A DNA stretch of 64,000 nt from Elsinoe ampelina (GCA_010093995.1 ML992504.1:1601394-1665393); one strand, 5' to 3'; shown: positions 8,645 to 32,987, numbered from the stretch's first letter. Numbers and translations: made by a program. Notes: generated from the sequence alone by a model not told the origin.

Positions 8645-10454
8645 ATGCAAGTCACCAATACCATGCTCAATTCCCAGCATGGGATCGACACAAGCACGTC
8701 TCCGCGCAAGCCAGCGGGAATCATCATCAACGGCAACATTGGTCAGAACCACCAGAACGACCACCGCCAGAACAATCAGGCAGAGCCACGCCCAAGTCTC
8801 CAGCAAGAAACGCGCCATTCATACCATGCCGAGCCAAACGCCTTGGTCGTCCCCAAGCAGCGCTCAAACACCCAACCACTCGACGACGACGCTGCCCGCT
8901 GGGCAGAGCGCATCAAAGAACGTCGTATCAGCACCAAACGCCGCCGCGAGGAAGAGCTTGATGATGAGCGAGTACTCATGGGCACAAAGGTGGCCGAAGG
9001 ACACGAGAACTTCGAGACGGCGTATAATATGCTCACCGGCATCCGCTTCTGCGTGTCTCGCTGCAACGCTAAGATCGACCGCGAGCTCACCACCGCCGAC
9101 TTCCGCGAACGGCGCAAGACCAACTTTGACGTCCTCGGCACTGAGCTGACACCTGCCACCAAATACGACTTTAAATTCAAAGACTACGCCCCATGGGTCT
9201 TCAGACACCTTCGCGAGGCATTCAACATCGATCCCGCTACCTACCTCATGTCGTTGACCGACAAATACATCCTCTCAGAACTCGGCTCGCCAGGCAAGTC
9301 CGGCAGCTTCTTCTACTTTTCAAGAGACTACAAATACATCATCAAGACCATTCATCATCACGAGGCAAAGTTCCTCCGCAAGATCCTCCCACAATACTAC
9401 GAGCACGTCAAGGCAAACCCGGACACATTGCTCAGCCAATTCTACGGCCTCCACCGCGTTAAGACCAGCACTGGAGACCTGTTTCACTTTGTCATTATGA
9501 ACAACCTTTTCCCCGCACACAAAGACATTCACCGCACATACGACCTGAAAGGCAGTCTGGTCGGGCGCGAATACGACGAGAAACTACTCGACAACAACCC
9601 ACAAGCCACCCTCAAAGACCTCAACTGGTTGAACCGTAACATGCACCTCGAGTTCGGTCCTTCAAAGGGTGACAAACTCAAAAATCAAATGGAGCGCGAC
9701 GTTCGTTTCCTTCAAAAGCTCGGCATCATGGACTACAGTCTCCTCGTCGGCATCCACGACCTCAACAGAGGCAACGCAGATAACATCCGCAACAAAACCC
9801 TCAAAGTCTTCCAACCAGGCGGCGAACGCATCCTCTCCAACGCCAACCTGCCGAATCTACAACCGTTATCCGAAGCCGCCACCACCACCAGCTTCGAACT
9901 ACCAAACAACGCCTCATCCACCGGTCTCACATCACAACAAAGCAACCAAGCCTTGCCCAACCTCCTCACCCGCACACCCAGCAAGATCGAAAACGCCCGG
10001 AAAGCCAGCCAGCTTAGACAGCTCGTCAAGGCCGAACGCCCCGTGCCCATGGACCAAACCCGCAACCGCATGCCCGAGCGCCAAGCCGACCACGACTCAA
10101 AGAAAGGCACCTTCTTCTACGGCGAAGAGGGCGGCCTCCGCGCCACAAACCGAGACGACCGCCCAGGCGACGAAATCTACTACCTCGGCATCATCGACTG
10201 TCTGACAAAAGTAAGTCCCCCCCCTCCCTTTTCCCTCCCCNNNNNNNNNNNNNNNNNNNNNNNNNNNNNNNNNNNNNNNNNNNNNNNNNNGGTAGTACTC
10301 CATGACCAAGCGGGCGGAACACCTGTGGAAGTCGTTCAGCCAGCCGGACGCCGAGATCTCGGCCGTGCCGCCGGTCAGGTACGGGGAGAGATTCCTCAAG
10401 TTTATGCGGCGGGCGGTGGCGCCGAGGGAGGAGGGGGGGGAGATGACGTTTTAG
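8645..10454 (+). CDS. MSS4: Phosphatidylinositol-4-phosphate 5-kinase; last intron (10211-10295) spans the N gap; start codon uncertain
   Basis: YDFKFKDYAPWVFRHLR, GSPGKSGSFFYFSRDYKYIIKTI, YDLKGS, IMDYSLLVG, YYLGIIDCLT. Final exon YSMTKRAEHLWKSF...ISAVPPVRYGERFLKFM...*. Confidence 0.93.
10241..10290. other. Assembly gap (50 N) inside the MSS4 intron
   Basis: Run of n between a C-rich tract and a G-rich tract. Confidence 0.99.
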
Positions 10455-10650
10455 GAGGGGGAGGGGGAGGGGAGGGAGAAGGGGGAGAAGGGGGATGGGA
10501 GAGGGGAGGAGGGAGGAGGGGAATGGAGGAGGGAAGGGGCTTTCTTTTGTCCTTGGGACATAGCGTCGGCGTACTGAGAATACCATCTTTTTTTCTTCTC
10601 ACTGTTGCTGGTGGTGTCTTGTGATCGATGTCATGGGTTCGTGGTGGTCT

Positions 10651-10935: not shown

Positions 10936-11751
10936 CTTCAAGCTGAGCGACGTAGTCCCGGTTCTCGAACGTTGACCCTTTTATAAGCTTCGGTCCCACG
11001 ATCGACAGGATGTGGAGAAGGCGAGTCGGCAGGAGGATTTCGAAAGAATTGTCCTTAGCGGTGAGACTGGCTTGAACAGTCGTGGCTGGGCTTGCTGTCC
11101 GCAACGACCAGATCCTCGTCGGTGTCTCCTTACTTGACCAGTGAGTCTAATAATCCTCTTCTTCTTCTTTGGTGCGGACTTCGGATCAGATGTGCTTTGT
11201 ACTTCATCTTCATACACTGGGTCAAAGCCTTTGTCGTCGTCTTGCTGGGCACGCTTGAAGAGCTCTGGAGATGTTCCGTTGTCCTCTAAGCTTGCTTTAA
11301 ACACACGCCTACCATACATACCAGCATAGCCACTCATCTCGATCACAACATCTCGTCTTCTGGCAACATGGTATCTGCTCGTCACACAGAACCCTCCCTG
11401 CAGACGAACCTGCCGTACGAGAGACGCGATCATGCCGTACGACTCGACTCTGCAAGCTGCTTGGCGACGGCAGGCAAGGGAAGTAGTGGAAGGCATGGTT
11501 GAAGCATATACAATCCTCCAGCGCCGAGGCGTCGGCAAGAGCGGAGAGGGCGAATAGCCAAGTCGACTTGGTTATGCAAGCAATGGTTAAGCCAGGTCGT
11601 CGTGCCTTTTGCGTAGACACTGACCTACAAATCTCGTGTTCACGAACAGCCGGACCTTGAGTACGTTTTGTAACAATAATACATTACATCCTAGCTAGTG
11701 GTATCATTCGTCGTTCCTCCCATCATTCCCTCCTCTCCTAGTATTCCAAAT

Positions 11752-12024
11752 CTAGTTGGACACCTTGTCCGGGACCTTCTTGCCAGTGGCCTTCTCAAAG
11801 GCACCACGAGCGCTATCGGTGACCTTCTCGTTGACAGACCTCAACTTGTCGGGGTTCTGGCCGGCGCGGCGCTCGAGGGAGTCGAGACCTGGTGGCTGTC
11901 AGTCACTGCTTGTTCAGAGGGGAGGGGCTGGAGGTGTACCCTTGTCACCGTAGTCCTTCTGGTTGGGGTCGACGGGCTTGCTGCCGGAGGGTTGTCCGGA
12001 TACGGCTTTCTTGATGGCGTCCAT
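11752..12024 (-). CDS. Small hydrophilic protein (~73 aa, stress-protein-like), one intron
   Basis: MDAIKKAVSGQPSGSKPVDPNQKDYGDK + intron (GTACAC...CTGAC...CAG) + GLDSLERRAGQNPDKLRSVNEKVTDSARGAFEKATGKKVPDKVSN*. Confidence 0.8.
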
Positions 12025-12433
12025 TGTGGTTTGTAAAGAATCGTTCTTGTGTGTTGGTATGTGGTGTATGGGGTGTAGTTTGACTTGAGGAACTAACCGA
12101 GAGAACAACAGACCTCTACCCTACCTTAAGTACCCCTCCCCGTCATCCTGCCAGACGGGCCTTATCCCCCCCCAAGCACCAGCCGAACGCAACCAAGCTC
12201 CAACCCGTGCGTTCAACGTTGCGCCATCGTGCCCATGCCCACCTCGGAACATCCTCCCATCGCGAGGCGCTGATACGTGGACCTGGGACGGGACAGCGTC
12301 ACTGCTGCAAGCAAGGTTTGTGGCTACATCACTGGTGGGGGCTGGATCGTTCCAGGATGGGAATTTGAAGACACAATAATGAGCTAGAGGGAAAAGGTGT
12401 GGCTTCGCAAGCTGGCAAAGAGAGGTTGATGGG

Positions 12434-12441
12434 TGACGTCA
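12434..12441. promoter_or_regulatory. Perfect CRE palindrome TGACGTCA upstream of the small stress-like gene
   Basis: TGACGTCA at 12434. A second TGACGTCG near 12482 and CCCCT/AGGGG (STRE-like) words lie in the same upstream region. Confidence 0.35.
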
Positions 12442-12931
12442 TGGGAGCACGCGGGGCGATGGACGGGGGAGGGTTTGCGAGTGACGTCGAGGGGAGAGAC
12501 AACCGGGAGGGAGCTTATCTGCTGATTGTTTTGAGTAAATGCGAAAGGGGGGCTCGATGGTGACAAGGAGTATTTGATATTGTGCAGATAGTGGATGATG
12601 GTGAAGTGCTTGAGTGGGAAGCTGCATCAATCCAAGATGATATGCCCGCCCCTTAGATGCTGCTGCAGTGTCACAACAAAGATGGTTCATGGTCCTCATG
12701 AAAGTATACACAAAGATTGAATTGGATTATTGACGTGAAGTAGACCAAACACGAGCAAGCTACCGTAGCCGCTCAGACGTTTTTCTGGTATCATCGCTCG
12801 TCCGCCAGTCCCTAGCATGAAACTGTTTCGCTCTCAGGTGTGACAAAGTAAAAGATTGCTCCAACGAGCAAATGGTATCGACCAATCTCGTGCCAGAGCA
12901 ACACGGTTGTTGATGATCTCACTGCTTGCCA

Positions 12932-13696
12932 TCAAAACTCCGGATCCTCTATCATTCGCCTCTCGAATTGGCGTCTCTCATTACGGTTGGGATCGATGGT
13001 CCAAGGTTGGCCGCGCTTCGCATGGTGCATGCGACGAGCATAGCCCTCCATCCACAACCCACGATCGAACATCCTCCTCGTTCCCGCGATATCAATAATC
13101 CGTCTGTAGTACTCCCAGCAGCAATCTATCGGATTGGACTCAAAACCGATCCATAGTGCGAATCTATGTCTGAACTCTCCCCAGGCGAGATTGGTGGTTG
13201 GCCTACTCGCTGCCTTTGCTATGCGCCATGCTCCGATGGTTTCATTCATGACATTACGACGGAAATTGTTGGCTTCGTGTTCCGTCAGTGTCATCGGAGG
13301 CGATGGCAGGCATATCGGATGGACAAGGATGTGAGGTGATGTGCACATCGGCTCAGGACTGTGGGCGCGCTCAGCGCAAGCAGTGTATGGCTCTGCTGAC
13401 CTCTCTCGGTCTCTGGGCCCGTTGCTTTGGGCAGCAATTTCATCGGCCGTGGCATAGGCTGGAACTTCTCCTGCACCAGCGTTCTGGGTCAAGTTTGGGC
13501 TGTCATGCCGGGGCGCAGAACTGTTGGTGACTGATTCGATCGTGTGAAGGTCGTCGACATGTTCCAAGTCCAGTATGCTCACTCGCTCGGGCGTTTTTGA
13601 CAACCCCAAATGTTGGCTGTTCGCCGACATCTCTGCCGGGGGACTGTCTGAAAAGCCGGGCGCGGACTCAATTTGCTTGGAAGAACCGCCATTCAT
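12932..13696 (-). CDS. Hypothetical protein, in frame with and immediately downstream of SPT7
   Basis: Open frame from 13747 to the stop at 12932; first ATG at 13696. Disordered N-half, then a W/R/F-rich, folded-looking C-half (LAWGEFRHRFALWIGFESNPIDCCWEYYRR). Confidence 0.5.
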   Translation of the reverse strand: MNGGSSKQIESAPGFSDSPPAEMSANSQHLGLSKTPERVSILDLEHVDDLHTIESVTNSSAPRHDSPNLTQNAGAGEVPAYATADEIAAQSNGPRDRERSAEPYTACAERAHSPEPMCTSPHILVHPICLPSPPMTLTEHEANNFRRNVMNETIGAWRIAKAASRPTTNLAWGEFRHRFALWIGFESNPIDCCWEYYRRIIDIAGTRRMFDRGLWMEGYARRMHHAKRGQPWTIDPNRNERRQFERRMIEDPEF

Positions 13697-19442: not shown

Positions 19443-21573
19443 ATGTCTGCCGCGGGGAACTACCGAGGAACTCCTAAAGGGAGACCACAATCTGCTGCCT
19501 TTTCTGACAGTCCATCTGCAATTCCTCGACCAAAGTTGGAGACTCTCGCCAGTACCAGCAGCGACGCCGGCATGTCTTCACTAAGCGCCAGTCGGCAAAA
19601 ACAATCCAAGAGAGATGAGGTCAGTAGCCCGTAGCATTGGGCACGCCAATTGGAAGTAAGCTGATATTAGCAGGCCATTCGCAAGAAGATTGAGACGGAT
19701 CTCAATAAGAAGAAGAGCAATCCCGCCCGAGCCAGACAGGCACGAAAAGCTCCCCCTGGAACAGTACTCGCGCTTCGACCCAGTCCAGCTTTACAGATCA
19801 AGCCGAACACCACAGTAGCTGAAGCTGCCCAATTGATGGCAGCAAAGAGGGAAGATTGCGTACTTGTCACCGACGATGATGACCGAATCGCTGGTATCTT
19901 TACCGCAAAAGATTTGGCGTTCCGAGTGGTGGGCGAAGGTGTCAAGGCGAACACGGTCACCATCGATCAGATCATGACCAAGAATCCACTATGTGCGAAG
20001 ACGGACACAAGTGCGACAGATGCATTGGACCTGATGGTACGGAAAGGATTCAGACATTTGCCCGTCATGGACGAGAATCACGACATTTCGGGTATTCTGG
20101 ACATCACGAAATGTTTCTACGACGCCATGGAAAAGCTAGAGCGTGCCTATAGCTCCTCGCGAAAGCTCTACGACGCACTTGAGGGTGTTCAGGCTGAGCT
20201 GGGGTCAAGTCAACCCCAACAGATTATCCAATACGTTGAGGCTATCAGACAGAAAATGTCAGGGCCAACTCTGGAGTCGGTACTGAATGGTCTACCACCA
20301 GTGACCGTCTCCGTCAGGACCTCAGTCAAGGAAGCTGCCGCTCTCATGAAAGAGAATCACACCACTGCCGTTCTTGTACAAGACCAAGGCTCAATCACTG
20401 GTATCTTCACGAGCAAGGATGTCGTGCTTCGCGTTATTGCCGCGGGTCTTGATCCTGCCAATTGCAGCGTCGTGAGAGTCATGACGCCTCATCCGGACTT
20501 TGCCCCCATGGACATGAGCATCCAAGCAGCGCTCCGAAAGATGCATGGTGAGATCGATCGTGACACAACTGATATGCAACCGCTAATCATATACAGATGG
20601 ACACTACCTCAATCTTCCCGTCATGTCGCTAGAAGGAGAGATCGTCGGCATGGTCGATGTTCTCAAGCTGACCTACGCCACCCTCGACCAGGTCAACAGC
20701 ATGTCGACAGGTGACTCGGAAGGTCCAGCGTGGAATAAGTTCTGGATGTCCATCGACCACGACACTGAATCCATGATGTCAGGTGAGGGTTCGCATGCGC
20801 AATCTCGACATACACACGACGTTCGCTCGCAAGTCATGTCGCCTGATCTTTCTCGTCCTGGCATGGACAGGCTTGATAGTGTCGCGCCTGGAGACTCGGC
20901 ATCACATGCTGGCGTTGAGTCGCCCTCTACGTCAGCTGTTGGTGGTGCAAACACCTCGGCGGCCGAACTTCCCTTCCCCTTCAAGTTCAAGGCACCTTCA
21001 GGTCGTACGCATCGTCTTGCCATCGCGCCATCCGCAGGCATGCCAGCTCTGATCTCCGTGGTCGCAGACAAGCTTGGTCCTGAAGCTGCGTCTCTAGGCG
21101 GTGTGCCGACGTTCGACAGCGCGCTGTCCAGTACTGGCTTCGCGCTATCATATCTTGATAATGAAGGCGACACCGTCTCCATTACCACTGATGCCGATCT
21201 CATCGACGCGATTACTCTTGCGCGCAATGCTGGCCGCGAGAAGGTCGATCTCTTCGTACATCATCCTGACAAGGCTCCGATCCCAGCCACGACCAACCCA
21301 GCACCCTCGACCATGCCTACTCCACCAGAGAGCATCAAGGACCGGAAGTCCTTCGGCGTGCAAAGCGAGGACGACAGCGCCAACGAGGAGACCGAATTCG
21401 TCAGCGAGAAGCGCAAGGGCAAGAAGCGAGAACGGGCGCACGAAGTGGCGAAGCAGCCTCAAGAGCAGGTGATTCAAGGTGTGCCGAACGAGTTGCTTCT
21501 GCCCGGAGCCATCGTCACGTTGGCGGTGGTGATTGTGGGGGTGTTTGCTTTCACCAGGGGTAGCAAGAATTGA
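19443..21573 (+). CDS. CBS x4 plus PB1 domain protein with C-terminal TM anchor (2 introns)
   Basis: Repeated CBS motifs (AGIFTAKDLAFRV, GIFTSKDVVLRV), PB1 (FKFKAPSGRTHR...YLDNEGDTVSITTDADL), hydrophobic tail LLLPGAIVTLAVVIVGVF. Confidence 0.92.
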
Positions 21574-21756: not shown

Positions 21757-23031
21757 TCACCGGGCCCCGTCCTGCTTCACCAACTTGCCCTCCCAATCTC
21801 CCCTATCTATCTCAGTCTTATTCATCCGTGGTATATTCCACCACTGATCCGTCCACGGCGCTCTCTTCGCATACTCCGCCGCCCCCTTGGCAGCGACGTA
21901 CAACGGATCCTCGTCCACGAACGGCGGTATAGCCCGCCCATCAGCCACAAACTCCATCGCTTCGACGACATTCTTCTTGAAAACAGGCGAGTCTGCACTC
22001 TCCCCCATGAGGATGATCTTGCTGGGGAAGTCGTAGTGCTGCATCAAGTAGATATTGAAGATGAGTTCGCGGACGAGCGCCCAGTACTCGTCGATGTCAT
22101 CGGGGTCGGTGCGGGAGAGGAGCTCGTCGCTGCCGAGAGTCCAGTCCTGGCGAATGCGGTAGGGGGGTTCCCAGAGACTGAAGCCCCCGTGCATCCTCGC
22201 TACCGAAACGATAAAGGCGTCTCTCGTGTACAGGAGCACCATGATGTCGTCGAAATCGGAGTGGTAGGATTCGTTGTGGCAGCTTACGATGTCGGTGAAG
22301 TTGCTGCAGAGGCCGTAGCCGCAACCGGCGTAGGCGGTCATGGTTTCGTAGACGAGGTGATCGAGGAGGTGTTGCTTGTGCATCTCGACGCCGATGTGCT
22401 CGAAGGCGTCGATGATGTCTTCGTTGTAGACGGCTGCGAGGTGTGGGATAGTGGCGATTGCGGATGTGACGGGTTTGCCGGTGTATTGCTCGGCTTTGTC
22501 TCGCAGTGCTGCTAGCATGCCTGCTATGGTTCCGACATCTTCTGAGGCTGGGAAGCCGAATCGTTTGCGCCACCTGCGTAGCTGCTGACGTGGTATGTCG
22601 TTGAAGTCCTCGCCTGCATTGTTGTATGGTGGTCTGCTGTATTTAGTAGTGAAGGGAGTGGGTGGTTATGGTGATGCTCACGCAATGTGCTTGGACGATT
22701 CGAGAGATAATCGTTTCCAAGTTTCTCGGTATTTCTCGTTCCCTTCGACTTTATGGATTGAATGAGTGGTGCCATTGGGGTAGCTGATTGCCACTGTGCT
22801 AGTGAAGTCGTCAGCGGAAATTCACCATGCGCTGGAACGGCCTTACCCATAGAAAGCTGTCAGATCGAAGCCTATGCCTGGCTGGATGTGAAGAACATCC
22901 TTCGTCGGATCGTCTGCGTGATGGAAACCTGGTTGTGATGAATTGATATGTAATAGAGTGATCAAGTAAAGTGAGGAGACGATTGCGAGCAAAGCGAGCA
23001 GTCCACTCGACAACATTCTTCTTGCATACAT
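21757..23031 (-). CDS. Family A copy 1: signal-anchored protein with a degenerate Hsp70/actin-like NBD only (2 introns)
   Basis: Hydrophobic N-terminus, PGIGFDLTAFYG/TVAISYPNGT, LAALRDKAEQYTGKPVTSAIATIPHL, ILMGESADSP, DPLYVAAKGAAEYAKR. Both introns splice in frame. Confidence 0.8.
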
Positions 23032-23791
23032 GCTCGACCAGATGAGTGCGGAATGAAAGTGACGAAGACAGAAAGAATATCCAAGATGCCCATGGCTAGG
23101 TACCTACTTTCAAGCTCCTGTGTGTGGCGCGGTTGTGGGCGCGTCCTGCGACAAGGCCTGGCGGCAAGGGTGGTTCAGCTGAGCGCCGCAGGGCAAGGCT
23201 GAGTCATCACGCCACTCTTGCAGGCGGCTATGCGCCAGACCCCCTTCAATATTGTCCAAGTGTGTTCAATCTCGATCATTCAGTCCCTGGCACCTGAATA
23301 GCGGCTCATAGACTCTCTGCATGTCCTATAAATGGCTTTGAGCCACTGTGCCACCTACACCATGGTCTAGGGTACCACTGACGGCCAGACGCTCAAACAC
23401 TCAGCCTTCCTTCCAACCGGTGAGAGTATCTATGGGAGGGTCATCGTTGGATGACATGCCTGCGAACGTCCCCTCCAGCGCCGCTACACTCATGTAGGCT
23501 CCGTCTTATCACTGCGCCGTGGCATTCGAAACACCCATGGAGTGGTCAAGGCAAGAGTGGCATCAGGGCTTCTCCACCGCCTTGCACTGCTCTCCGGGCA
23601 CACATTCCTCCACAGAGATGTCCTATCTGAAACTCTGGCCAATTCAGCTGAAGTCCACAACCGCTGAGGCTTGAGCAGCTGCTCCTGGACTGTGCCGTAT
23701 ACCATGCATGTGCAAGATGTAATAAAAGGTGGACAACATGCCAGGTCGGTAGAGTACCCTTTCATTCATCAGAGTACTCGCCTCTTCTATC

Positions 23792-25184
23792 ATGGCTCTT
23801 CTGAAGTCTTTGCTGCTCTTTATCGCTACATGTACAGCCGCTCCTCTCCTCGGGCCACGAGATGACCCTATACCACTACGGTGGGCGACTGTAGGCGACA
23901 GCTGGGCGTCCAGTGTTGCATACGACAATAACGTAGCACTTGATGGCAATCAAGACAAATGCCTCGGAGCAAGGAGTCATACACATACCAGATGGAACAG
24001 GACGAGAGCTGGCGCTCAACTCCCCAAGACCTGAAGTTTCCCGCATGCTCAGGGGCGCAACTCATTGACATTGCCCATCCTACCATGGGTCAACAACAAA
24101 TCAAAAGGACCGGCGAACCTCGAGTGGTCATTATGACAATCGGTGGTAACAACGCTGGTTTCGCTAACATTGTCACGGACTGCATGTATCAACCATTTTG
24201 GTGGAGAGACTACGAAGGACCTTTTCCAGATGACGGAAAATGCGCTGCTGCCATTGCGGCAGCAGATAGAATATTGGACGACACCATCGGAACTGATATC
24301 ACCAACACATACATTGATATCTTCAACCACTTCAAGGACATGCCAAGTGATCTCAATGTCTACCACACCAGCTATGTGAGTGATGCACCCAGCCCTTCCA
24401 AACTCAAGCTGACGATTATCAGATACCCTTCTTCAACACCGAAGACAACTGGTGCCGCGACGAGAGCTTCGCTGTCTACCCTTTATCCTGGAAAAAGGAA
24501 CAGAAGCTCAACGTCGAGATTCGCACGGCCATGAACAATCTAGTCACCAAGATGAACAACATCATCGACCAAGCCGTCAGGGACTTTCAACCCCGCCTCG
24601 CCCAGTCCCAGCGACGTCTCCTCGCCCGCCAGAAGGACCTCTCCGACACAGGCCCCGTCATCCCCGACCGCCCCGACCCCCCTGCTCCCCCACCAGCAAC
24701 CCAACCATTCCAACCCCCAATCCAACCCGTCGTCGCAAAGCGAAACCTCGGCTTCATCGATCTCTCCGAAACCTTTAGCGGGCACCGCTTCTGCGAGACC
24801 AACTCCGACCACACGAAGCAGTACTACGGCAACGAAACCTACCTGTGGAATCTCAACTACTTCGGAACTCGCGAAGTGCCTGCCGACGGGAAAGTGCCGG
24901 CTCTCACGTCGGAGCAGAAAGTGCAGATGCAGACTGGTGAACTTGCTGGTGAAAGTGGAAGTGGTACGGACAATTCGATTAGTAACGGGTGGCATTTGCG
25001 ACCGTTTCATCCGACGGCGAGGGGAAACGAGGCGATCAAGGATGCGATTGTGCAGAGGCTGGTGCAGGATCAGATCCCTGGGGTGAAGTCGTTGACCAGT
25101 ATGTTGAATGGGGAGGCGATTAGTGGGAGTGTGCTTGGTGGGATACTTGCTGGGTTGAGGGGTATCATGGGCAAGGGTGCGTAA
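23792..25184 (+). pseudogene. Family B copy 1: secreted SGNH/GDSL hydrolase with a 1-nt deletion at ~23966 (pseudogene or sequencing error); intron 24376-24422
   Basis: Signal peptide, WATVGDSWAS, ACSGA, TIGGNNAGF, GHRFCE, RPFHP. It reads TGC CTC GG AGC AAG GAG where the paralog has TGC CTT CGT AGC AAG GAG. Confidence 0.75.
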
Positions 25185-25439
25185 GAGGTGGACCTCGAAG
25201 AATGTATAGGAATCCAGCGGTTGTCTTTGGAGTATGGCGGTGGTGATTTGCTTTGGTCATACCTAGTACGAATTGTGTAATGCTCGGCAGATCTGGGATT
25301 AGATAATGTCATTATGCCGCATGATTAAAACTCCAGTCGTGCTCATGTCGTGCGAGGCTAACTTACGATTCAGCTGATAATCTCATCTATAGCACAACGT
25401 TGAGTACAGGTACCAAATCTACCAGCCGACCTAGACCAA

Positions 25440-26709
25440 TCACTCCATCAATTGGCTTCGTAGACCTGGCGAAGTGCTTGGAGTTGACAAATTATGTGAC
25501 TTGTTCCAGCCAATTTCCCACCAGAGATCTGTGTACGGTGCTCTCTTCGCGAACTCTGCTGCACCCTTCGCGGCAGCAAATACCGGATCTGTGTCGTAGA
25601 ATGGAACGTCCGCATTGGTAAGCTGGGAAATGACCCCTTTGACAGTATCATTGAAGTTTGGGATGCCGGCGGAGTCCCCAAGGAGGAAGACTCGATGGGG
25701 TGGATCGTAACGGCGAGCAAGGTAGATCTCCTGAATAGCTTCTCCGACGAGTGACCAATACTCTTCAATTTCCTCTGGCGTCAAGAAATGTGCTAACTTG
25801 TCGCTTCCAAGATCGAAGTCGAGCCTAAAGCGGACGGAAGGTTCCCACAAGAAGTAGGCGCCTTTAACACTTGATACAGCCACTGTAAGCACATCTGGTG
25901 TGTATAGTATGACGAGAAGCTCTTCGCTGTCAAAATCATGCATGTGGTCGTAAGTGTATTCAGCGTTAGTGAAGTTCTTAAAGATGCCGAGCCCATGACC
26001 TGCGTATGCGCTGATAGTCTCATAGACAAGGTGATCGTAGAACCAGACGACCGGGGAAGACAGGCCTACGTGCTCGAAAGCGTCCGTGATATCCTCGTTA
26101 TAGACTGCAACCAAATGAGGCAACGTCGTGACGGCAGAATCTATGCCTGAGCCGGTGAATTGAACCACTGCGTCACGCAAGCTTGCCACCATCTCGGCAA
26201 GAGTGCCGACATCTGTAGAAGCTGGTAGTCCTAGACGCTTCTTCCACTTCCTCAATTCTTGTCGCGGTAAGTCATCCCAGCGGTCTCCAAGATTGTCATA
26301 AGGCGGCCTATTGGTGGCGTTAGATCTGCTCGTGCACTTGCTTTGGGCAAGTACTTGCGCTATGTGCTTAGAGGTTTCCAACGACAACCTGTGAATTGTT
26401 TCGCGATATTTCGTTGAACCATCGATCTTTGCTATGGCGACATTGGTGCCATTTGGGTAGCTGACAGCTGCAACTCTGAACGATTTTAGCTAGGTCGCGC
26501 TGTGGCACAATCAAAACATCATACCCATAGGTGGAAGTCAGGTCAAATCCAATCCCAGGCTTGATATCCGAGCGCCATTGTGAATCTTCCGACAGATGGA
26601 ATAGTTGCTGCAAGCGCACCTCGCCGACATGCACCAGCAGATAGATTATGGAGACTATTGCAGCCGTTGCCACCAGGAATGAGCTACAAACCATGCTGGC
26701 ATGCTTCAT
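25440..26709 (-). CDS. Family A copy 2: signal-anchored Hsp70-NBD-like protein (2 introns, the second GC-AG)
   Basis: FLVATAAIVSIIYLLV anchor, PGIGFDLTSTYG/VAAVSYPNGT, VASLRDAVVQFTGSGIDSAVTTLPHL, FLLGDSAGIP, DPVFAAAKGAAEFAKR. Confidence 0.82.
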
Positions 26710-27474
26710 CCCGAGAACGTGATGCTCTTGCGACCAAAGGGCGTGGACAAGTGCTTGAGATGCAGAGAAAGGTACCCATGTTGTCAAGAAGACGAGCTGC
26801 GGCACAGTTCATTAGGAGTCATGGAGAGCCTCGAACCACACTGAAGTCCTCAGCTTTTTGCCAAGGTGTTTCATCACGCTTGCCGCCGCACCCCCACGCG
26901 TGGACCAAAACTATTCCTGGCCTTCTGAAAACTTCCTCCCTCCCTCAACCGCCGAAGCGCTTGATCATCGGTCCTCGGACCTCACAACACAGGACAGCCA
27001 ACGTCTGTGATTGATTCACAGCTGAAGGAAGCGGCTTGCTCATCACCGCTTCGCCGGCAGGACATTTCAGCTCTTTGCCGCAACCGATATGCAGTTGTCT
27101 CCACATTGCTCTGCCCTTGAGGCTGAGGTAAGAGCTCTACGCCGCCCGCACCATCTGTTCCACCATGGTAGTGAGCTTCCTGCTACCGTACTCTCTCACC
27201 GGAACGGTAAGCAAAAATAGCATGACCGGACCACTTGGAGTACTGTCATTGGCAATGAGCCATCGAGGCAGGATGCTCAGCTTCATGGCATGGATTCTCA
27301 GCGGCACCACCATACAGGTCGTAGCAGGACAGGGGTTCGCGTGGCAGTACCAGCGAGTGACGACCACCGAAGTTTTGCACTGTGAGGGAATGCTATAAAG
27401 AAGTAAGCGTGGGTAGGCCATTGACTGCCATAATCTCCTTCTCTTTTCTCAATCCAGAGTACTTGCTTCTCGTC

Positions 27475-28848
27475 ATGGATACACTTCTACTCGTCTTCGC
27501 TGCGGCTAGTGCTATTTCCGCCATACCTCATCTCCTCCCTCGTCAGGACCAATCTTCCATTCTTCCATGGGCAACCATTGGTGACAGCTGGGCATCCAGT
27601 GTTGCATATTCAGATGATGTAGCCTTTGACGGCAATAGGGATAACTGCCTTCGTAGCAAGGAGTCCTATACGTACCAGCTTGAGCAAGACGCAAGCTGGC
27701 GACAAGATGGACAAAATTTGAGGTTCGCTGCCTGCTCCGGGGCACGGCTGGGCGACATGGCAAGAGAGGGGGGACAATTTCAGGTCAGGAAGACCGGCGA
27801 TCCTCGTATCCTGATCATGACAGCGGGTGGCAATGATGCGCTGTTCGCCGACGTTGCAGTGGACTGCATCTACCGACCAGATCCTCGAGAAGACTACGGC
27901 GAGCCGTTCCCAGGGGAGGGCCGCTGCAAGGCGTCCTTAGAGAGATCTAGCGCCTTCATGGACAACAATCTCGGTCTCGAGCTCGAGAAGGTCTATGACG
28001 AGATCTTCCGAAACTACCAAGACCAAGCAAGTGACCTTACGGTATACCATACCTCATATGTAAGACTCTCTGCTACGCTTACTTTGTTGCCTCGATGCTG
28101 TATTGACTGTCGACAGGTGCATTTCTTCAACGTCAACGACAATTGGTGCAACGACTACAACTTCGGAGTTGTGCCTGATGTTCCCTTCCGGCCACCTCGC
28201 AATCAGAAGCTCAATGTCGAGCTGCGGACGTCCATGAACGATCTCGTAGAGAAGATGAATCGTATCATTGAGCAGTCTGTCAATGCTTACCAGGGCAAAC
28301 TTCAGAGCCAGCCAAAACTGCTCCGACGACAGAAGGACCTCTCCGACACAGGGCCCGTGATACCTGACCGTCCGACCTCGCCCCCACCATCATCACCACC
28401 CACGCAGCCCTTCATTTCCCCCATCCAACCAACTATAGCCAAGCGCAGCCTAGGCTACATCAACGTTTCCCCACGCTTCGACGGACATCGCTTCTGCGAA
28501 GACGAATCCTCAGGCCGCAAGCAGTACTACGGCGATGATGTGTGGTTCTGGAACTTGCGAGCAGCATTCGCACAAGAGCCAGAAGGCGAGGATGTCCCTC
28601 CTCTCTCGGCCGAGGAACAGCTGGAAGTGCAAGAGTTGGGTATTATGAGTGGATTGGGTGGAGGGAATGATATCAAGAATGGATGGAGACTTAGGCCGTT
28701 TCACCCCAAGGCGCCAGGCAATGCAGCTTTCAAGGACGTGATCATTGCGAGACTTAGAGATGATCAGATCTCAGGCGTAAGATCCGTTGGATCGGTGGTG
28801 GGTGGCGCTATCGCTGGGATTTTGGGCTCTGGTGGTCGACCATCATGA
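27475..28848 (+). CDS. Family B copy 2: secreted SGNH/GDSL (SEST-like) hydrolase; 57-nt in-frame intron near 28060-28116
   Basis: Signal peptide MDTLLLVFAAASAISA, WATIGDSWAS (block I), FAACSGA (II), TAGGNDALF (III), GHRFCE, RPFHP (V). Confidence 0.9.
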   Translation: MDTLLLVFAAASAISAIPHLLPRQDQSSILPWATIGDSWASSVAYSDDVAFDGNRDNCLRSKESYTYQLEQDASWRQDGQNLRFAACSGARLGDMAREGGQFQVRKTGDPRILIMTAGGNDALFADVAVDCIYRPDPREDYGEPFPGEGRCKASLERSSAFMDNNLGLELEKVYDEIFRNYQDQASDLTVYHTSYVRLSATLTLLPRCCIDCRQVHFFNVNDNWCNDYNFGVVPDVPFRPPRNQKLNVELRTSMNDLVEKMNRIIEQSVNAYQGKLQSQPKLLRRQKDLSDTGPVIPDRPTSPPPSSPPTQPFISPIQPTIAKRSLGYINVSPRFDGHRFCEDESSGRKQYYGDDVWFWNLRAAFAQEPEGEDVPPLSAEEQLEVQELGIMSGLGGGNDIKNGWRLRPFHPKAPGNAAFKDVIIARLRDDQISGVRSVGSVVGGAIAGILGSGGRPS

Positions 28849-28947
28849 TCTCCTTGGCCGTGCTGTGGAAGCTTTTGTACACTGCTGGCGCAACTAATCT
28901 GTTGCTCATCTTCTGTCGGCCCTGTCCGAGTCATATTCCGGATGTCG

Positions 28948-30208
28948 TCAATGTCTCCATAAAGCACTTGATCTCTGCTCTCTCAGTATCTCATCGTCCT
29001 GGACCACTCGGAAGTTGCCTGAGACCTCTGGTCCAATATGCCACCACTCGTCAGTCCACGGCGCCCGCTTCGCAAACTCTGCCGCACCCATGGCAGCCGC
29101 ATATAACGGATCTCCATCAAACACACGAGGCATCTCGTCTAGCACAGCCGCCATCACCTTATCCAGAATCACTCGAAACCTGGGCATATCCGCACTCTCA
29201 CCCATCATCACAAACCTGTCAAAACGAGTCCACCTACGCCTGACAGGAAGATCCATAAGCGCCTCCCTAACCGCCTCCCAATACCGCTCCACGTCTCCAG
29301 CCGCCGAGAGCGACTCCAACTTCCCACTCCCAAGGTCAAAGTCCAGCCGATTAAAGTAATCCGGCAAGAACAGGTAATAAGCCCCTTTCACATACGACGT
29401 AGCCACCATCAGCGCCTCCCGCGTGTACAACACCGTGAACACCTGCTCCCTCGGGTACGCATTCGTCTCTTTCAAACACTTCTCAGGCTGCGTCCAATGC
29501 TCACATAACCCGAGGTCATACCCTGCGTAGGAAGCCGTAGCCTCGTATATGAGGTGGTCGAAGAACCACACCTTCGTGGACCGCAAGCCGGCGTACTCGA
29601 TAGCGTCGCGGATATCTTCGCTGTACACCCCGGGCAGCTTGGGGATGGTGACCACCACGAAGTCCATGTTGTGCCCGAGGAAGGCGTTGGTGCGGTCGCG
29701 GAGGGCGATTATCATTGAAGAGATGACGCCGACGTCAGAGGAAGAGGGGAGGCCGAGTCTCTTGCGTAAGGAGCGGAGGTCTTGTCGGGGTCGGTCTTTG
29801 ATGGCGTCTTCGAGGCTGGTGTATGGTGGTCTTTGTGGGATCAGTGAGGTTGCCGGGAGGGGTCGGGGTGGGCTTACGCGAGGTGCTTGGAGGATTCTAG
29901 GGCGAGACGCTGCCATAGCGTACGGAATTGGTTCGTGGCATCGACTTTTGCGATGGGTAGCTTGGTGCCGTTTGCGTAGCTGATCGCTGCTGTGCTGTTT
30001 GTCTGATCAGACATCCGATTGGGTTTGTTCACTGGACGTACCCGTAGAAGGCTGTGAGGTCGAAGCCGATGCCAGGCGCAACTTTCTCGCTGTCGTTGTC
30101 TGTGAGGACCTGTCGGTGTCCTTGGAAAACCGGCTGTGCGCATGCTAGATGATAGAGTGTACGGCTTGAAACTAACGGGATCAGCAGGAGTAAGACATCG
30201 AGCAGCAT
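28948..30208 (-). CDS. Family A copy 3: signal-peptide Hsp70-NBD-like protein (2 introns)
   Basis: MLLDVLLLLIPLVSS, PGIGFDLTAFYG/TAAISYANGT, IIALRDRTNAFLGHNMDFVVVTIPKL, VMMGESADMP, DPLYAAAMGAAEFAKRAPWTDEWW. Confidence 0.82.
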
Positions 30209-30572: not shown

Positions 30573-32987
30573 TTATCGACCATCCCTAAAAGCCGAGTCC
30601 TTCGCAAATGCCGCAAAGTTAATTTCATTCCTAAGAGGCGCCGCATCCTTAGTTGGCGTTTCCTCCTCGCCCTTCTCGCTCCTAAGCGGCGTGACATTGG
30701 ACCACGAAGAGGTGTCGGCCTTACTCGACGAGTCCGCCTGGCCGTCACCCATGCTGATACGGCTGTTCTCTTTCTTGACGGGCGTCCTAGGCCTGCTAGT
30801 TGGGGCGCTCCTCCCGATACCGACAAAGCTGCCTGATAGACTCGAACTCAGCTTCTCCATGCTCCAGCCGGGGTCGTTCCTTTCCATTTCGCCATTAAAA
30901 GCAGGTCCGGCGGCAACATCAGCGCTCTCAAGCCCTATGACGACAGGCTCTTCCTCCTTTGGCAAACTAATGGCCGGCTGGGTTGAAGTGCCATTCATCT
31001 CTTCGTCAGTGCGGCCGAACACCTCGGCCCACCAGCGGATCTTGCTTGCGTCAGGAAAGATAAGGCGTTCCTTCCCAACAATCTTGTCGTCGATGTCTGC
31101 ATCATAGTCTGGATTGACGAATTGATGCTTACGTGAGAGAAAGTAATCCCAGACGCTGCGAGTACGTTCGCTGGCACGCCACTCTGCACGTTCGCGCTCG
31201 TTGTCGAACAAGAATGTGCCGTATTGAGCAGCGTATAGCTGGTAGAGGAGGCGACGAAGGAAGCGCTCATTGAACTCGAAGCGATTGGGGTGTTGACGGA
31301 GAAGCTGCCAAGTCGCATCGAGAAATTGGTGAAAGATGGGAGACGTCTCACTATGCTTGGTCCCTATCTTGTCGTCTTTGGAGCGCGAAGGCGATGAGTC
31401 CATATCGGAAGGGTCGACGAGATTCTCTCGCGAGTCATTCTTCTTGTTGAAGAAGCCACGTGCAGTAAAAATGGCATTCTCGAAGGCATTGGCAGGAGGT
31501 TGCGCAGTTCCATTGACGTTGGTCGAAGGTCGTGGGCGATCATTCTCGATCTCGAATGCCTTGTCATGCGACAGTGGTCCTGTACGACGGCGGAACATGT
31601 GACCAAATGAGAGCCAATCTTTCTCCACCAAAACAATGAAGCCTTCTATTGTGCGATAGTAGGGGTCGAGACAGAGTTGAGAGAGTGAAGATATTTGTGA
31701 GGTTCGATCCCAGCCGTCAGAACAATGGATGAGAACATGTGAATGATTGATTCCGATCTGACGTGCCACAAGGTCGGCTCCCTTCACCACCAGACTGATG
31801 TACTTGAGCCATTTGCTCTTTGCGAGTAGATCCTGGTCGGGTCCAAGGTTTGTATAGTCGGAATGCTGAAGAGCTTCGACAACCCGGCCGAGAGAGTCTC
31901 GCATGACGTGAATGTTGTCGATTCCAAGGAACGTGATGGTTGCGTCTTTGTAGTATTCCATGTTTTCGGATCCCATGCCGCCAACTTGATTGGCTCGAGC
32001 GTTCATGAGTGGTCGAGCATCGATAATCAGGTTCCGTTGCTGAGCGCCGTAGATCTTGGCAGTCTTGAGGTCTGGTTCACTCCGGTGATGCGCAAGCTTG
32101 TGGTCTTCGCCATCTGTCGATGCCCGTCCATCGTCCTGAATAGCCACCATGTCGGCAGGAATGTCTGACAAGGAGGTCGGGTCGAGTCCTGGTGTAGCTG
32201 ACTTTGGTCGTGAAGTTGAGAAGATAGCTTGTACGAGTCTTTCGTCCTGAGGATTACGCTTGCCCTTGAGAAGTCCGACCATTGGCTGGGAGCTGCGAGT
32301 GATGGAACAATTGTTGACCGGATGAAGGTAGGTGAGAGCTGGTATTCGGGCTTTTGATCGGTATGCTGATCCATGCTTCAGGACATTGTCTGACACCGTT
32401 GAAGGCACGACCAGAACAGACGGGTACGTAGGTGAGTACACATAGTCGTGGTTGATCTCGGAAATTCTCCAACCCTTGTCTGCTTCTTTTGGACCGATAC
32501 CCATTCTCCTAAATTCTCTTCGCGCATCGTAAAGTTCCCATCCATTACATCTGACCTCTTCCGAAGGCGGCTTGTAGGCGAATGCGTGCAGCTTATCCAG
32601 ATGTGATCCCAGGCATGTCAGGGCCTTGATCGCCTCAAAGACGTCTCTGGCGACCTCCTCCTCGGGTAATTGGAAGGCGATGAACGTGAAATCTCGACAT
32701 TGTAGGCGAATTGACGGCTTTTGGCGCAGCGCGGCGGGCTCAGGGCGAAAAACACAGCGGGATATGAGTGGATAGGATATCCAGACTTGACGTACCTTTG
32801 GTTTCGAGTCTGAGCCTGTAGGCAGCGACCAGGAGAAAATGAGATGATGCTCGGAGATATACAGAGTACCGGTAAACCTGTCACCTCTCCTGCAAAGGAC
32901 TACATCCTTGACCTCCTTGAAAGAGCCGAATTGACCGAGTGCCGGCTTGCCGTTTGAGCCCACTTTGAGACCTTTGATCTTGTCCAT
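30573..32987 (-). CDS. YMR1: Myotubularin-family phosphoinositide 3-phosphatase
   Basis: Catalytic HCSDGWDRT, SPTYPSVLVVP, RSKARIPALTYLH, VEKDWLSFGHMF, SPIFHQFLD, YGTFLFDNERER. Confidence 0.94.
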   Translation of the reverse strand: MDKIKGLKVGSNGKPALGQFGSFKEVKDVVLCRRGDRFTGTLYISEHHLIFSWSLPTGSDSKPKVRQVWISYPLISRCVFRPEPAALRQKPSIRLQCRDFTFIAFQLPEEEVARDVFEAIKALTCLGSHLDKLHAFAYKPPSEEVRCNGWELYDARREFRRMGIGPKEADKGWRISEINHDYVYSPTYPSVLVVPSTVSDNVLKHGSAYRSKARIPALTYLHPVNNCSITRSSQPMVGLLKGKRNPQDERLVQAIFSTSRPKSATPGLDPTSLSDIPADMVAIQDDGRASTDGEDHKLAHHRSEPDLKTAKIYGAQQRNLIIDARPLMNARANQVGGMGSENMEYYKDATITFLGIDNIHVMRDSLGRVVEALQHSDYTNLGPDQDLLAKSKWLKYISLVVKGADLVARQIGINHSHVLIHCSDGWDRTSQISSLSQLCLDPYYRTIEGFIVLVEKDWLSFGHMFRRRTGPLSHDKAFEIENDRPRPSTNVNGTAQPPANAFENAIFTARGFFNKKNDSRENLVDPSDMDSSPSRSKDDKIGTKHSETSPIFHQFLDATWQLLRQHPNRFEFNERFLRRLLYQLYAAQYGTFLFDNERERAEWRASERTRSVWDYFLSRKHQFVNPDYDADIDDKIVGKERLIFPDASKIRWWAEVFGRTDEEMNGTSTQPAISLPKEEEPVVIGLESADVAAGPAFNGEMERNDPGWSMEKLSSSLSGSFVGIGRSAPTSRPRTPVKKENSRISMGDGQADSSSKADTSSWSNVTPLRSEKGEEETPTKDAAPLRNEINFAAFAKDSAFRDGR

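Follow-up and report, generated by a model that had tools for sequence, protein, structure and literature searches.

A fast-evolving tandem array of Hsp70-domain-like and secreted SGNH esterase genes in Elsinoe ampelina

The locus described here, from the grapevine pathogen Elsinoe ampelina, is best explained as an old and rapidly evolving tandem array whose unit is a module of two genes. One gene of the module (A) encodes a protein with the fold of the Hsp70 nucleotide-binding domain (NBD), and the other (B) encodes a secreted esterase of the SGNH type. We favor, at a probability of about 0.4, a reading in which A acts in the secretory pathway, without catalytic activity of its own, as a partner of the hydrolase encoded beside it. 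Relatives of A also lie beside secreted hydrolase genes in other fungi, a hint that A may have a helping or protective role not previously described.

Five genes in the order A1(-) B1(+) A2(-) B2(+) A3(-) are flanked by a CBS/PB1 gene on one side and a myotubularin gene on the other. Positions are counted from the first letter of the window, which is the whole 64-kb stretch of DNA that was analyzed.

19671..21573, + strand: flanking gene encoding CBS and PB1 domains (Pfam)
21757..23031, - strand: A1, anchored Hsp70-NBD-like protein, 392-393 aa; exons 23031-22847, 22798-22682, and 22633 (or 22636)-21757
23032..23791, no strand: A1-B1 head-to-head spacer, 760 bp
23792..25184, + strand: B1, SGNH esterase copy; frame break at 23966-23967; intron 24376-24422
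25293..25366, - strand: intron in the A2 3' UTR, 74 nt
25440..26709, - strand: A2, anchored Hsp70-NBD-like protein, 389 aa; exons 26709-26525, 26475-26359, and 26307-25440
26710..27474, no strand: A2-B2 head-to-head spacer, 765 bp
27475..28848, + strand: B2, intact secreted SGNH esterase/lipase-type protein, 438 aa; intron 28060-28116
28948..30208, - strand: A3, third Hsp70-NBD-like paralogue, 388 aa; exons 30208-30042, 29994-29878, and 29830-28948
30573..32987, - strand: flanking gene encoding a myotubularin-like phosphatase, 804 aa (Pfam)

This alternating order had been proposed in a sequence-only reading of the locus, and the gene models, together with Pfam assignments for the two flanks, agree with it. 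They reproduce exactly the spacers of 760 and 765 bp claimed there, as well as the offsets of 3678 bp between A starts (23031 to 26709) and 3683 bp between B starts (23792 to 27475). Intron conservation, also claimed, extends to all copies: A1, A2, and A3 each have two introns at identical positions and phases, and B1 and B2 each have one that is likewise identical in position and phase. The introns of A1 are at 22799-22846 and 22634-22681, and the second intron of A2 is a GC-AG intron of 51 nt. A1 corresponds to public model P0074, in which the alternative acceptor is used, A2 to P0001, and B2 to P0021. No additional copy of A or B was found in the 64-kb window.

The proposal of a tandem duplication followed by substantial divergence is supported. 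The repeat search revealed direct repeats at a spacing of 3674-3703 bp from copy 1 to copy 2 and of 3517-3523 bp from copy 2 to copy 3. All of the in-register repeats listed fall within coding sequence, and the A1-B1 and A2-B2 spacers have no listed repeat in common. Protein identity is 48% for A1/A2, 42-44% for A1/A3, 43-45% for A2/A3, and 54-55% for B1/B2. In the A tree, A1, A2, and A3 form a polytomy within one Elsinoe clade, and the tree does not discriminate between duplication of a head-to-head (A,B) unit and of a tail-to-tail (B,A) unit. Between E. ampelina and Elsinoe fawcettii, orthologous A and B proteins are 59-60% identical, compared with 88% for the adjacent myotubularin; both families evolve at about three times the rate of the housekeeping gene next to them.

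The assignment of A to the Hsp70-NBD family was upheld by structural comparison. The top Foldseek matches of the A model are the NBDs of BiP/Hsp70 (E 6e-12), and VIA-align superposes model residues 49-362 on the Hsp70 NBD with a Z of 24.5 and an rmsd of 2.5-3.6 over 241-259 aligned residues; the AF2 model of A2 has a pLDDT of 85.5. The fold shared with BiP/Kar2, Hsc70, and DnaK (PDB 3LDN, 3QFU, and 5FPM) spans the whole A domain, about 250 residues at 17-20% identity. Sequence similarity is weak but significant (E 9e-5), and a profile search with A recovers Kar2/DnaK NBDs at E about 1e-4, with the phosphate-1 and adenosine motifs aligned. Against the Pfam Hsp70 family (PF00012; cut-off 20.6), A1 scores 11.1 bits, A3 scores 10.4 bits, and A2 has no match; no Pfam family reaches its threshold for A.

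Unlike Hsp70, A has no C-terminal substrate-binding domain or lid: the proteins are 388-393 aa long, the model ends about 30 disordered residues past the NBD, and the domain has some 310 residues where that of Hsp70 has some 380. A also differs from Hsp70 in its predicted membrane anchor and in phosphate-1, phosphate-2, and adenosine motifs that appear degenerate. In the HMMER alignment, phosphate 1 reads 'GfDLtasYg' opposite 'GIDLGTTYS' ('DLGTT' becoming 'DLTas') and the adenosine motif reads 'GesaedeeF' opposite 'GGSTRIPKV' ('GGSTRIP' becoming 'GESaed'); the Asp persists, but the Gly/Thr residues do not. In A2 the phosphate-2 hairpin, placed by predicted secondary structure only, reads 'LYTPDV'. 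Given these apparently degenerate phosphate-binding loops, A is probably not an ATPase.

The claim that both families carry signal peptides or anchors fits the N-terminal hydrophobic segments visible by eye in all five proteins (A1, A2, A3, B1, and B2). A1 and A2 have a long signal-anchor, and A3 has a shorter signal-like segment. From the N-terminal anchor, A is predicted to be a secretory-pathway protein, a location that it would share with BiP. The proteins have a conserved N-G-T sequon and, in clade I, a CxxC motif. The Ascomycota family to which A belongs is large and unnamed: a threshold of E ≤ 1e-3 gives 1469 representatives and one of E ≤ 1e-30 gives 416, and its Atlas clusters are annotated as Ascomycota “hypothetical protein.” A full-text literature search, whose coverage excludes most subscription journals, returned nothing on the A family or on its pairing with B.

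B encodes a secreted SGNH hydrolase, as had been proposed, and more precisely an esterase of the Streptomyces lipase/phospholipase A1/SsEst type; the Pfam score and the profile and fold matches agree on this. B2 only just passes the threshold of PF13472 (33.0 bits; cut-off 32.9). The solved structures nearest to B2 (AF2 model pLDDT 86.2) are the Streptomyces rimosus lipase 5MAL, the S. albidoflavus phospholipase A1 4HYQ, and the S. scabies esterase 1ESC, with profile E values of 4e-25, 8e-25, and 3e-3, respectively; the fold match has an E of 2.7e-12 and a TM of 0.83 on the target. The GDS, CSG, and GGN(D/N) blocks of the Streptomyces enzymes align with B, which is also secreted and rich in disulfide-forming cysteines, six of them conserved. 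In B2 the blocks are GDS at 36, CSG at 87, GGN at 118, and FHP at 390; in the B1 read-through they are at 35, 86, 118, and 390. These blocks (I, Ser; II, Gly; III, Asn; and V, His), all intact in B2, are nearly invariant in 49 homologues and align with 5MAL. The residue three positions ahead of the catalytic His is Arg, not Asp; 1ESC presumably also lacks a catalytic Asp. B differs from the Streptomyces enzymes in being about 200 residues longer, with a long helical insert, a Pro-rich insert forming a loop with a dibasic KR at its end, and a hydrophobic C-terminal tail rich in Gly. Many B homologues additionally carry lectin-like C-terminal modules.

A1 and A2 are transcribed. The evidence comes from assembled contigs of unstranded runs, the depth of which was not used to rank genes. 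Runs X3, X4, and X7, from three studies, were guessed to be RNA and were counted as RNA-derived because of spliced joints absent from the DNA run. All four coding introns of A1 and A2 are spliced in each of these three runs, and the joint of the A2 3' UTR intron (25292/25367) is likewise present in each. The A2 transcript continues antisense into B1: contigs extend to 24715 in X4, where a separate contig reaches 24392, and to 23267 in X3, and a separate X7 contig over B1 begins at 24399. The B1 intron is retained in the RNA-derived contig spanning it. The RNA-derived contigs of X3, X4, and X7 contain no spliced B1 or B2 joint, absence of cover not being counted as evidence. B2 and A3 have no cover or are represented only by low-depth unspliced pieces in X3 (28676-29384 and 29584-30031) and have no cover in X4 and X7, from which we do not conclude that they are silent.

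These data bear on the idea that A and B are merely coregulated, with A an independent secretory or cell-surface protein (e.g., a quality-control or cell-wall factor) that shares a bidirectional promoter with secreted enzymes required under the same conditions and makes no physical contact with them. Head-to-head genes less than about 1 kb apart have the geometry of a bidirectional promoter, and the spacers of 760 and 765 bp fall within that limit. The geometry is conserved among A-hydrolase pairs, and the products of both genes enter the secretory pathway. However, the two spacers have no detectable repeat in common, and contigs with spliced A1 and A2 yield no spliced B joint. We consider this explanation improbable.

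B1 is not an intact gene: it carries a one-base frame break that the sequence-only reading overlooked. Relative to B2, B1 is one base short directly after 23960-23965, and the frame breaks at 23966-23967 (codon 59), so that the reading frame from its own ATG stops at 24034. An RNA-like contig from X3 and the DNA run X1 both contain the break, with 0 differences. In public databases, B1 is modeled as P0023 (350 aa), which begins at residue 99 of the read-through and has neither the signal peptide nor the GDS serine block. The Elsinoe batatas orthologue of B1 (P0081; 448 aa) is intact. B1 is a probable pseudogene in the E. ampelina genome. Copy 1 of the module would then have decayed, with B1 frame-broken and overlapped by the antisense A2 3' UTR and with A1, A2, and A3 still intact.

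A homologues lie beside SGNH genes in some other genomes, but not generally. In E. fawcettii, the myotubularin gene (KAF4549354) is followed by B, A, and A, with consecutive accessions (KAF4549355/56/57), and in Oculimacula yallundae, which belongs to another class, A and B are KAL2060153/54. A and B are adjacent in two classes of fungi, with proteins that are only 35-38% identical. An SGNH gene was found at none of seven metagenome loci (0/7; see below). In the annotation of E. batatas, the A1 orthologue (94% identical to the E. ampelina copy) has locus tag 003339 and the B1 orthologue (96%) has 002600, a difference of 739; the flanking genes are 002642 and 002647. If locus tags are positional, the A1/B1 pair appears to be split in that species. 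A3, suggested to fit an orphan, is not a recent one: its E. fawcettii orthologue (P0230; 59% identity; sister with 100/100 support) adjoins a B2-like gene.

Distant relatives of A were found at 24 metagenome loci, of which 7 dereplicated loci include upstream sequence. None of these seven has an SGNH gene. A B-family HMM that recovers all B1 and B2 exons in the window as a positive control is negative across the 24 loci (E ≤ 0.01), and Pfam identifies no GDSL family among 62 neighboring open reading frames (ORFs). Instead, an M35/HRXXH-like secreted metalloprotease gene is head-to-head with A at four of the seven loci, the other three having only housekeeping neighbors (ABC1 kinase, EF-hand, and Nop52). 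When 53 B-family queries were compared by tblastn with 5376 six-frame ORFs from the 24 loci, the sole matches were M35-like genes directly upstream of A, where the similarity is to C-terminal modules that long B homologues carry (E 1.6e-12 and 3e-9). The neighbor at locus L012 scores 20.8 bits against PF13933, under the cut-off of 27, and that at L018 carries 'FHETWH'; there are also an Atlas feature score of 0.91 and structural TM values of 0.46-0.59 to M35 clusters. All of these serve as leads only. A search for an M35-like gene in the 64-kb window of E. ampelina found none.

In the A tree, SGNH and M35 neighbors map to two major clades, the SGNH clade holding Elsinoe and Oculimacula. The head-to-head arrangement with M35-type genes recurs in two A subclades, and the spacers of A-hydrolase pairs measure 0.76-1.2 kb. 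The M35-like neighbors at four of the seven loci support an association of A with a secreted enzyme that is wider than the SGNH-only pairing first proposed. Because those within one A subclade may represent a single inherited arrangement, the number of independent events may be small (about 2-3).

The linkage might reflect no functional coupling: two fast-evolving secreted or secretory families would have been co-duplicated by chance, E. fawcettii would reflect synteny, and Oculimacula and the M35 neighbors would be coincidence or inherited gene order. Tandem duplication alone accounts for the periodicity of the array, three of the seven distant loci have housekeeping neighbors, splitting of the pair seems possible from the E. 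batatas tags, and spliced A is seen without a spliced B transcript. Nor is A fused to a hydrolase domain in any of 12 long A-family proteins (among 20 proteins scanned); two of these are merged with housekeeping neighbors, P0210 with syntaxin-6 and P0236 with Avl9, and both look like merged gene models. However, chance does not readily explain adjacency in two fungal classes at such low protein identity, the repetition of the geometry, in two A subclades, with secreted hydrolases of a second family, or the restriction of B-family matches, among 5376 ORFs, to the gene directly upstream of A. We regard the absence of coupling as rather unlikely. If the linkage is synteny only, the array is a tandem duplication of an ordinary kind, evolving fast and with one copy decaying.

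A toxin/immunity system is the idea put forward in the sequence-only reading. B would be a membrane-damaging lipase directed against competitors or the host, A its cognate immunity protein, and A3, along with A1 beside the broken B1, orphan immunity genes. A copies outnumber B copies and stay intact as B1 decays, transcripts of A1 and A2 are seen but no spliced one of B, a phospholipase A1 (4HYQ) is among the closest solved relatives of B, the enzyme partnered with A is modular (SGNH or M35, with C-terminal modules common to both), and both families diverge rapidly. Bacterial Tle/Tli pairs and polymorphic toxin cassettes similarly link a lipase-type enzyme tightly to a non-enzymatic partner, with extra partner copies, a decayed enzyme copy, fast divergence, and swappable catalytic heads on common modules. 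However, A/B is eukaryotic and has a different partner fold. The scheme is speculative; the Hsp70-NBD fold is no known inhibitor scaffold, and it is difficult to imagine a single immunity family acting on two unrelated catalytic folds. In E. fawcettii, A3 is conserved beside a B2-like gene and so is not a stray orphan, and rapid evolution is common among secreted proteins generally. We consider a toxin/immunity function doubtful. An extended form, in which A represents a new class of Hsp70-NBD-derived, ATP-independent partners in the fungal secretory pathway, each the dedicated latency or immunity factor of its head-to-head hydrolase, with modular SGNH/M35 heads and shared lectin-like targeting modules, as a eukaryotic counterpart of bacterial polymorphic toxin-immunity systems whose orphan partners and decayed enzymes would be those of the present locus, seems to us similarly far from likely.

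A-family genes recurrently stand head-to-head, at about 0.8-1.2 kb, with a gene for a secreted hydrolase (SGNH or M35-like, depending on the clade). In the partner reading that we favor, A would bind this hydrolase in the endoplasmic reticulum, in the Golgi, or at the cell surface and would escort or fold it or, as protection for the producing cell, keep it latent. A parallel is offered by Lif/LimA in Pseudomonas and Burkholderia, which are membrane-anchored, lipase-specific foldases encoded next to bacterial lipases; as A would be, they are N-terminally anchored and non-catalytic, face the export compartment, and are encoded beside a cognate secreted lipase. Their scaffold is all-helical, whereas that of A is the Hsp70 NBD, and they belong to a bacterial operon rather than to a divergent eukaryotic pair. 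The comparison is a works-like analogy.

Some observations sit poorly with a partner role. How one accessory protein would serve two unrelated catalytic folds is not obvious, and the spliced A1 and A2 without a spliced B joint, the seven distant loci lacking an SGNH gene, the three of them with housekeeping neighbors only, the E. batatas tags, the absence of hydrolase fusions among the 12 long proteins, and the small number of independent events also count against it.

Were A a dedicated hydrolase partner, a large unnamed Ascomycota family (1469 cluster representatives) would acquire a function, and the Hsp70 ATPase fold would have a use beyond the chaperone cycle. Head-to-head pairing of an A gene with the gene of a secreted enzyme would then be a simple genomic marker for hydrolases that need control or escort, among them, perhaps, candidate factors in virulence or antagonism from plant pathogens, Elsinoe and Oculimacula included.

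Stop-to-stop open reading frames, a reading of both strands, and explicit gene models place five genes in an interval flanked by a CBS+PB1 gene and a myotubularin gene, both identified by Pfam. Three encode Hsp70 nucleotide-binding domain (NBD)-like proteins (A1 to A3) and two encode SGNH esterases (B1 and B2), with the following explicit gene models.

21757-23031, minus strand, A1, Hsp70-NBD-like protein
23792-25184, plus strand, B1, SGNH esterase (frame broken)
25440-26709, minus strand, A2, Hsp70-NBD-like protein
27475-28848, plus strand, B2, SGNH esterase
28948-30208, minus strand, A3, Hsp70-NBD-like protein

The spacing reported in the sequence-only reading is exact: the A starts lie 3678 bp apart and the B starts 3683 bp apart, with head-to-head spacers of 760 and 765 bp. 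A repeat search reveals in-register direct repeats in the coding sequence, with periods of ~3.68 kb and ~3.52 kb, and lists no repeat common to the two A/B spacers. Intron positions and phases are common to all members within each family. Judging from their sequences, the paralogues are old copies (48% identity for A1/A2, 42 to 45% for A1/A3 and A2/A3, and 54 to 55% for B1/B2), and there are no further A or B copies elsewhere in the 64-kb window. The descriptive part of this analysis, i.e., the diverged tandem array, the fold assignments, the break in B1, and the transcription of A1 and A2, is solid.

A1, A2, and B2 are identical to the Elsinoe ampelina proteins in public entries P0074, P0001 (BDZ85DRAFT_90644), and P0021, respectively, and accessions KAF2225239 to 242 follow the gene order A1, B1, A2, B2. 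Among the collection entries seen, the A3 sequence occurs only in P0151, a 159-aa fragment; the public annotation may have A3 in truncated form or not at all. Elsewhere in the window, a run of 50 N (10241-10290) falls within a 659-aa open reading frame (8645-10624).

Pfam matches of A to HSP70 are all below threshold. The AF2 model of A2 (pLDDT 85.5) comprises a long N-terminal helix (residues 3 to 47) and one globular domain, for which the best Foldseek matches are BiP/GRP78 and other Hsp70 NBDs (E = 6e-12); VIA-align superposes about 250 residues over positions 49 to 362 on Hsp70 NBDs (Z = 24.5, rmsd 2.5 to 3.6). A profile of the A family reaches the NBDs of Kar2 and DnaK (E about 1e-4) and aligns with them at the phosphate-1 and adenosine motifs, where A has lost the Gly/Thr residues. 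The substrate-binding domain is absent, and we infer that A is a pseudo-ATPase. A lumenal or extracellular position of the domain is suggested by how charges are distributed about the A1 and A2 anchors, by an N-G-T sequon that is conserved, and by a CxxC motif present in other members. The family is large and without a name, with 1469 representatives of 50% clusters at E <= 1e-3; its Atlas clusters are Ascomycota "hypothetical protein."

B2 is barely above the PF13472 cutoff (33.0 versus 32.9 bits), and its GDS, CSG, GGN, and FHP blocks, together with six cysteines, are nearly invariant among 49 homologues. Ranked by sequence and by fold (AF2 model, pLDDT 86.2), its closest solved relatives are the Streptomyces rimosus lipase 5MAL, the S. 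albidoflavus phospholipase A1 4HYQ, and the S. scabies esterase 1ESC. The Elsinoe B proteins additionally carry a Pro-rich loop ending in KR and a Gly-rich hydrophobic tail. The Pro-rich insert is flanked by RR and KR dibasic sites (28230-28440 and 24540-24740), with KR at residue 304 (B2) or 301 (B1), and the hydrophobic C terminus is Gly-zipper-like; these features may point to Kex2-type processing and membrane association.

Unnoticed in the sequence-only reading, B1 is one base short relative to B2, directly after 23960-23965, and the frame from its own ATG closes at 24034. The public model of B1 (P0023, 350 aa) begins at residue 99 of the read-through and therefore excludes both signal peptide and nucleophile block. 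An intact orthologue of 448 aa (P0081), 96% identical, is present in E. batatas. A DNA run from which this assembly may derive carries the break without any mismatch, as does a contig from an RNA-like run of a different sample.

Transcript evidence comes from assembled contigs only, of three runs from three studies that we guess to be RNA derived (X3, X4, and X7, the last filed under a different organism label). Each of the four coding introns in A1 and A2 is spliced out in 3/3 of these runs, and none of the A1/A2 joints is present in the DNA run. The A2 intron at 26308-26358 is GC-AG, 51 nt, and in frame, as confirmed by spliced contigs in the three runs. The second intron of A1 has a tandem acceptor, CAGCAG (22634-22681 or 22637-22681); it is the downstream acceptor that appears in the RNA contigs and in the public model, and its use removes one Arg and gives a 392-aa protein. 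A further minus-strand intron, the fifth (25293-25366), lies 3' of the A2 stop, and contigs carrying its joint extend antisense into B1, to 24715 in X4 and to 23267 in X3. Separate contigs over B1 come from two studies, with one from X4 reaching or starting at 24392 and one from X7 starting at 24399. The A2 mRNA appears to have a spliced 3' untranslated region of ~1 kb or more that runs antisense across the 3' part of the frame-broken B1 and possibly the whole of it (23267-25292). The intron of B1 itself is retained in the sole contig spanning it. No splice joints were reported in the contigs for B1, B2, or A3, for which missing coverage is not evidence of silence.

The claim that A is paired with an SGNH gene is supported beyond this genome in two species. 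In E. fawcettii, the consecutive accessions KAF4549354 (myotubularin), ..55 (B2-like, 60%), ..56 (A3-like, 59%), and ..57 (A1-like, 60%) place the cluster at the same site, with the B2/A3 order swapped. Oculimacula yallundae, a member of the Leotiomycetes, also has consecutive accessions for A (KAL2060153, VTL71DRAFT_9975) and B (KAL2060154, ..9976), the proteins being only 35 to 38% identical to those of Elsinoe. Other observations speak against the claim. In E. batatas, the orthologues of A1 (94%) and B1 (96%) bear tags 003339 and 002600, and those of myotubularin and of a glycoside hydrolase family 5 (GH5) gene bear 002642 and 002647; if the tags are positional, the A1/B1 pair is split and gone from this site. 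The GH5 gene is intact and single exon in the window (1383-2993, plus strand), its E. batatas orthologue KVT40_002647 being named a glycoside hydrolase family 5 protein. Furthermore, a scan of metagenome contigs yielded 24 loci with distant A relatives (23 to 33% identity), and a B-type SGNH gene was found in 0/24, by a B-family profile with a positive control and by Pfam. No description of the A-B pairing was found in the literature searched.

Seven dereplicated loci include upstream sequence (L001, L004, L007-10, L011-13, L016/17, L018/19, and L023). In 4/7, a putative secreted M35/HRXXH-like metalloprotease homologue is head-to-head with A, 0.8 to 1.2 kb from start to start; ABC1-kinase, EF-hand, or Nop52 genes are the neighbors in the other three. 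The M35-like genes came to light through matches between their C-terminal modules and the extensions at the C termini of long B homologues, with modules of the type in entry P0027 (E = 1.6e-12) and of the type in entry P0042, beside a Fungal_lectin_2 domain (E = 3e-9). By eye, the O. yallundae B bears a P0042-type module. A tree of 33 A proteins, built by a quick method and rooted at the midpoint, puts SGNH neighbors into one major clade and M35 neighbors into two subclades of the other.

We tentatively prefer, at a probability of about 40%, a role for A as an accessory to the neighboring secreted hydrolase, which it would serve as an escort or foldase or through latency or self-protection. 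This preference rests on a head-to-head arrangement that recurs with two classes of hydrolase, the putative secretory location shared by A and the hydrolase, the survival of the A copies alongside a decaying B1, and the fast codivergence of both families: the A and B proteins of E. ampelina share 59 to 60% identity with their E. fawcettii orthologues, versus 88% for the adjacent myotubularin, and 94 to 96% with those of E. batatas, versus 97%. Neutral synteny, in which adjacency would carry no functional meaning, is a somewhat unlikely rival. The same divergent geometry could reflect coregulation only, which we consider improbable. A true toxin/immunity system, offered by the sequence-only reading beside an effector/partner role, is likewise improbable.

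Other neighbors were seen at the A loci. In L001, a sedolisin-type protease gene (11371-13331, minus strand; Pro-kumamolisin activation domain and Peptidase_S8 match) is convergent with and directly downstream of the A homologue that has the M35-like gene upstream. HET-domain genes lie ~6 kb from A homologues (L006:7181-8656 and L023:17147-18061) and are probably background, since HET genes are common. An Avl9/Afi1-SPA gene is directly downstream of A in L007 (11756-14320, plus strand), and in Cudoniella the two are merged in one 1072-aa public model (P0236); this adjacency gives the A family a second synteny, with a housekeeping gene.
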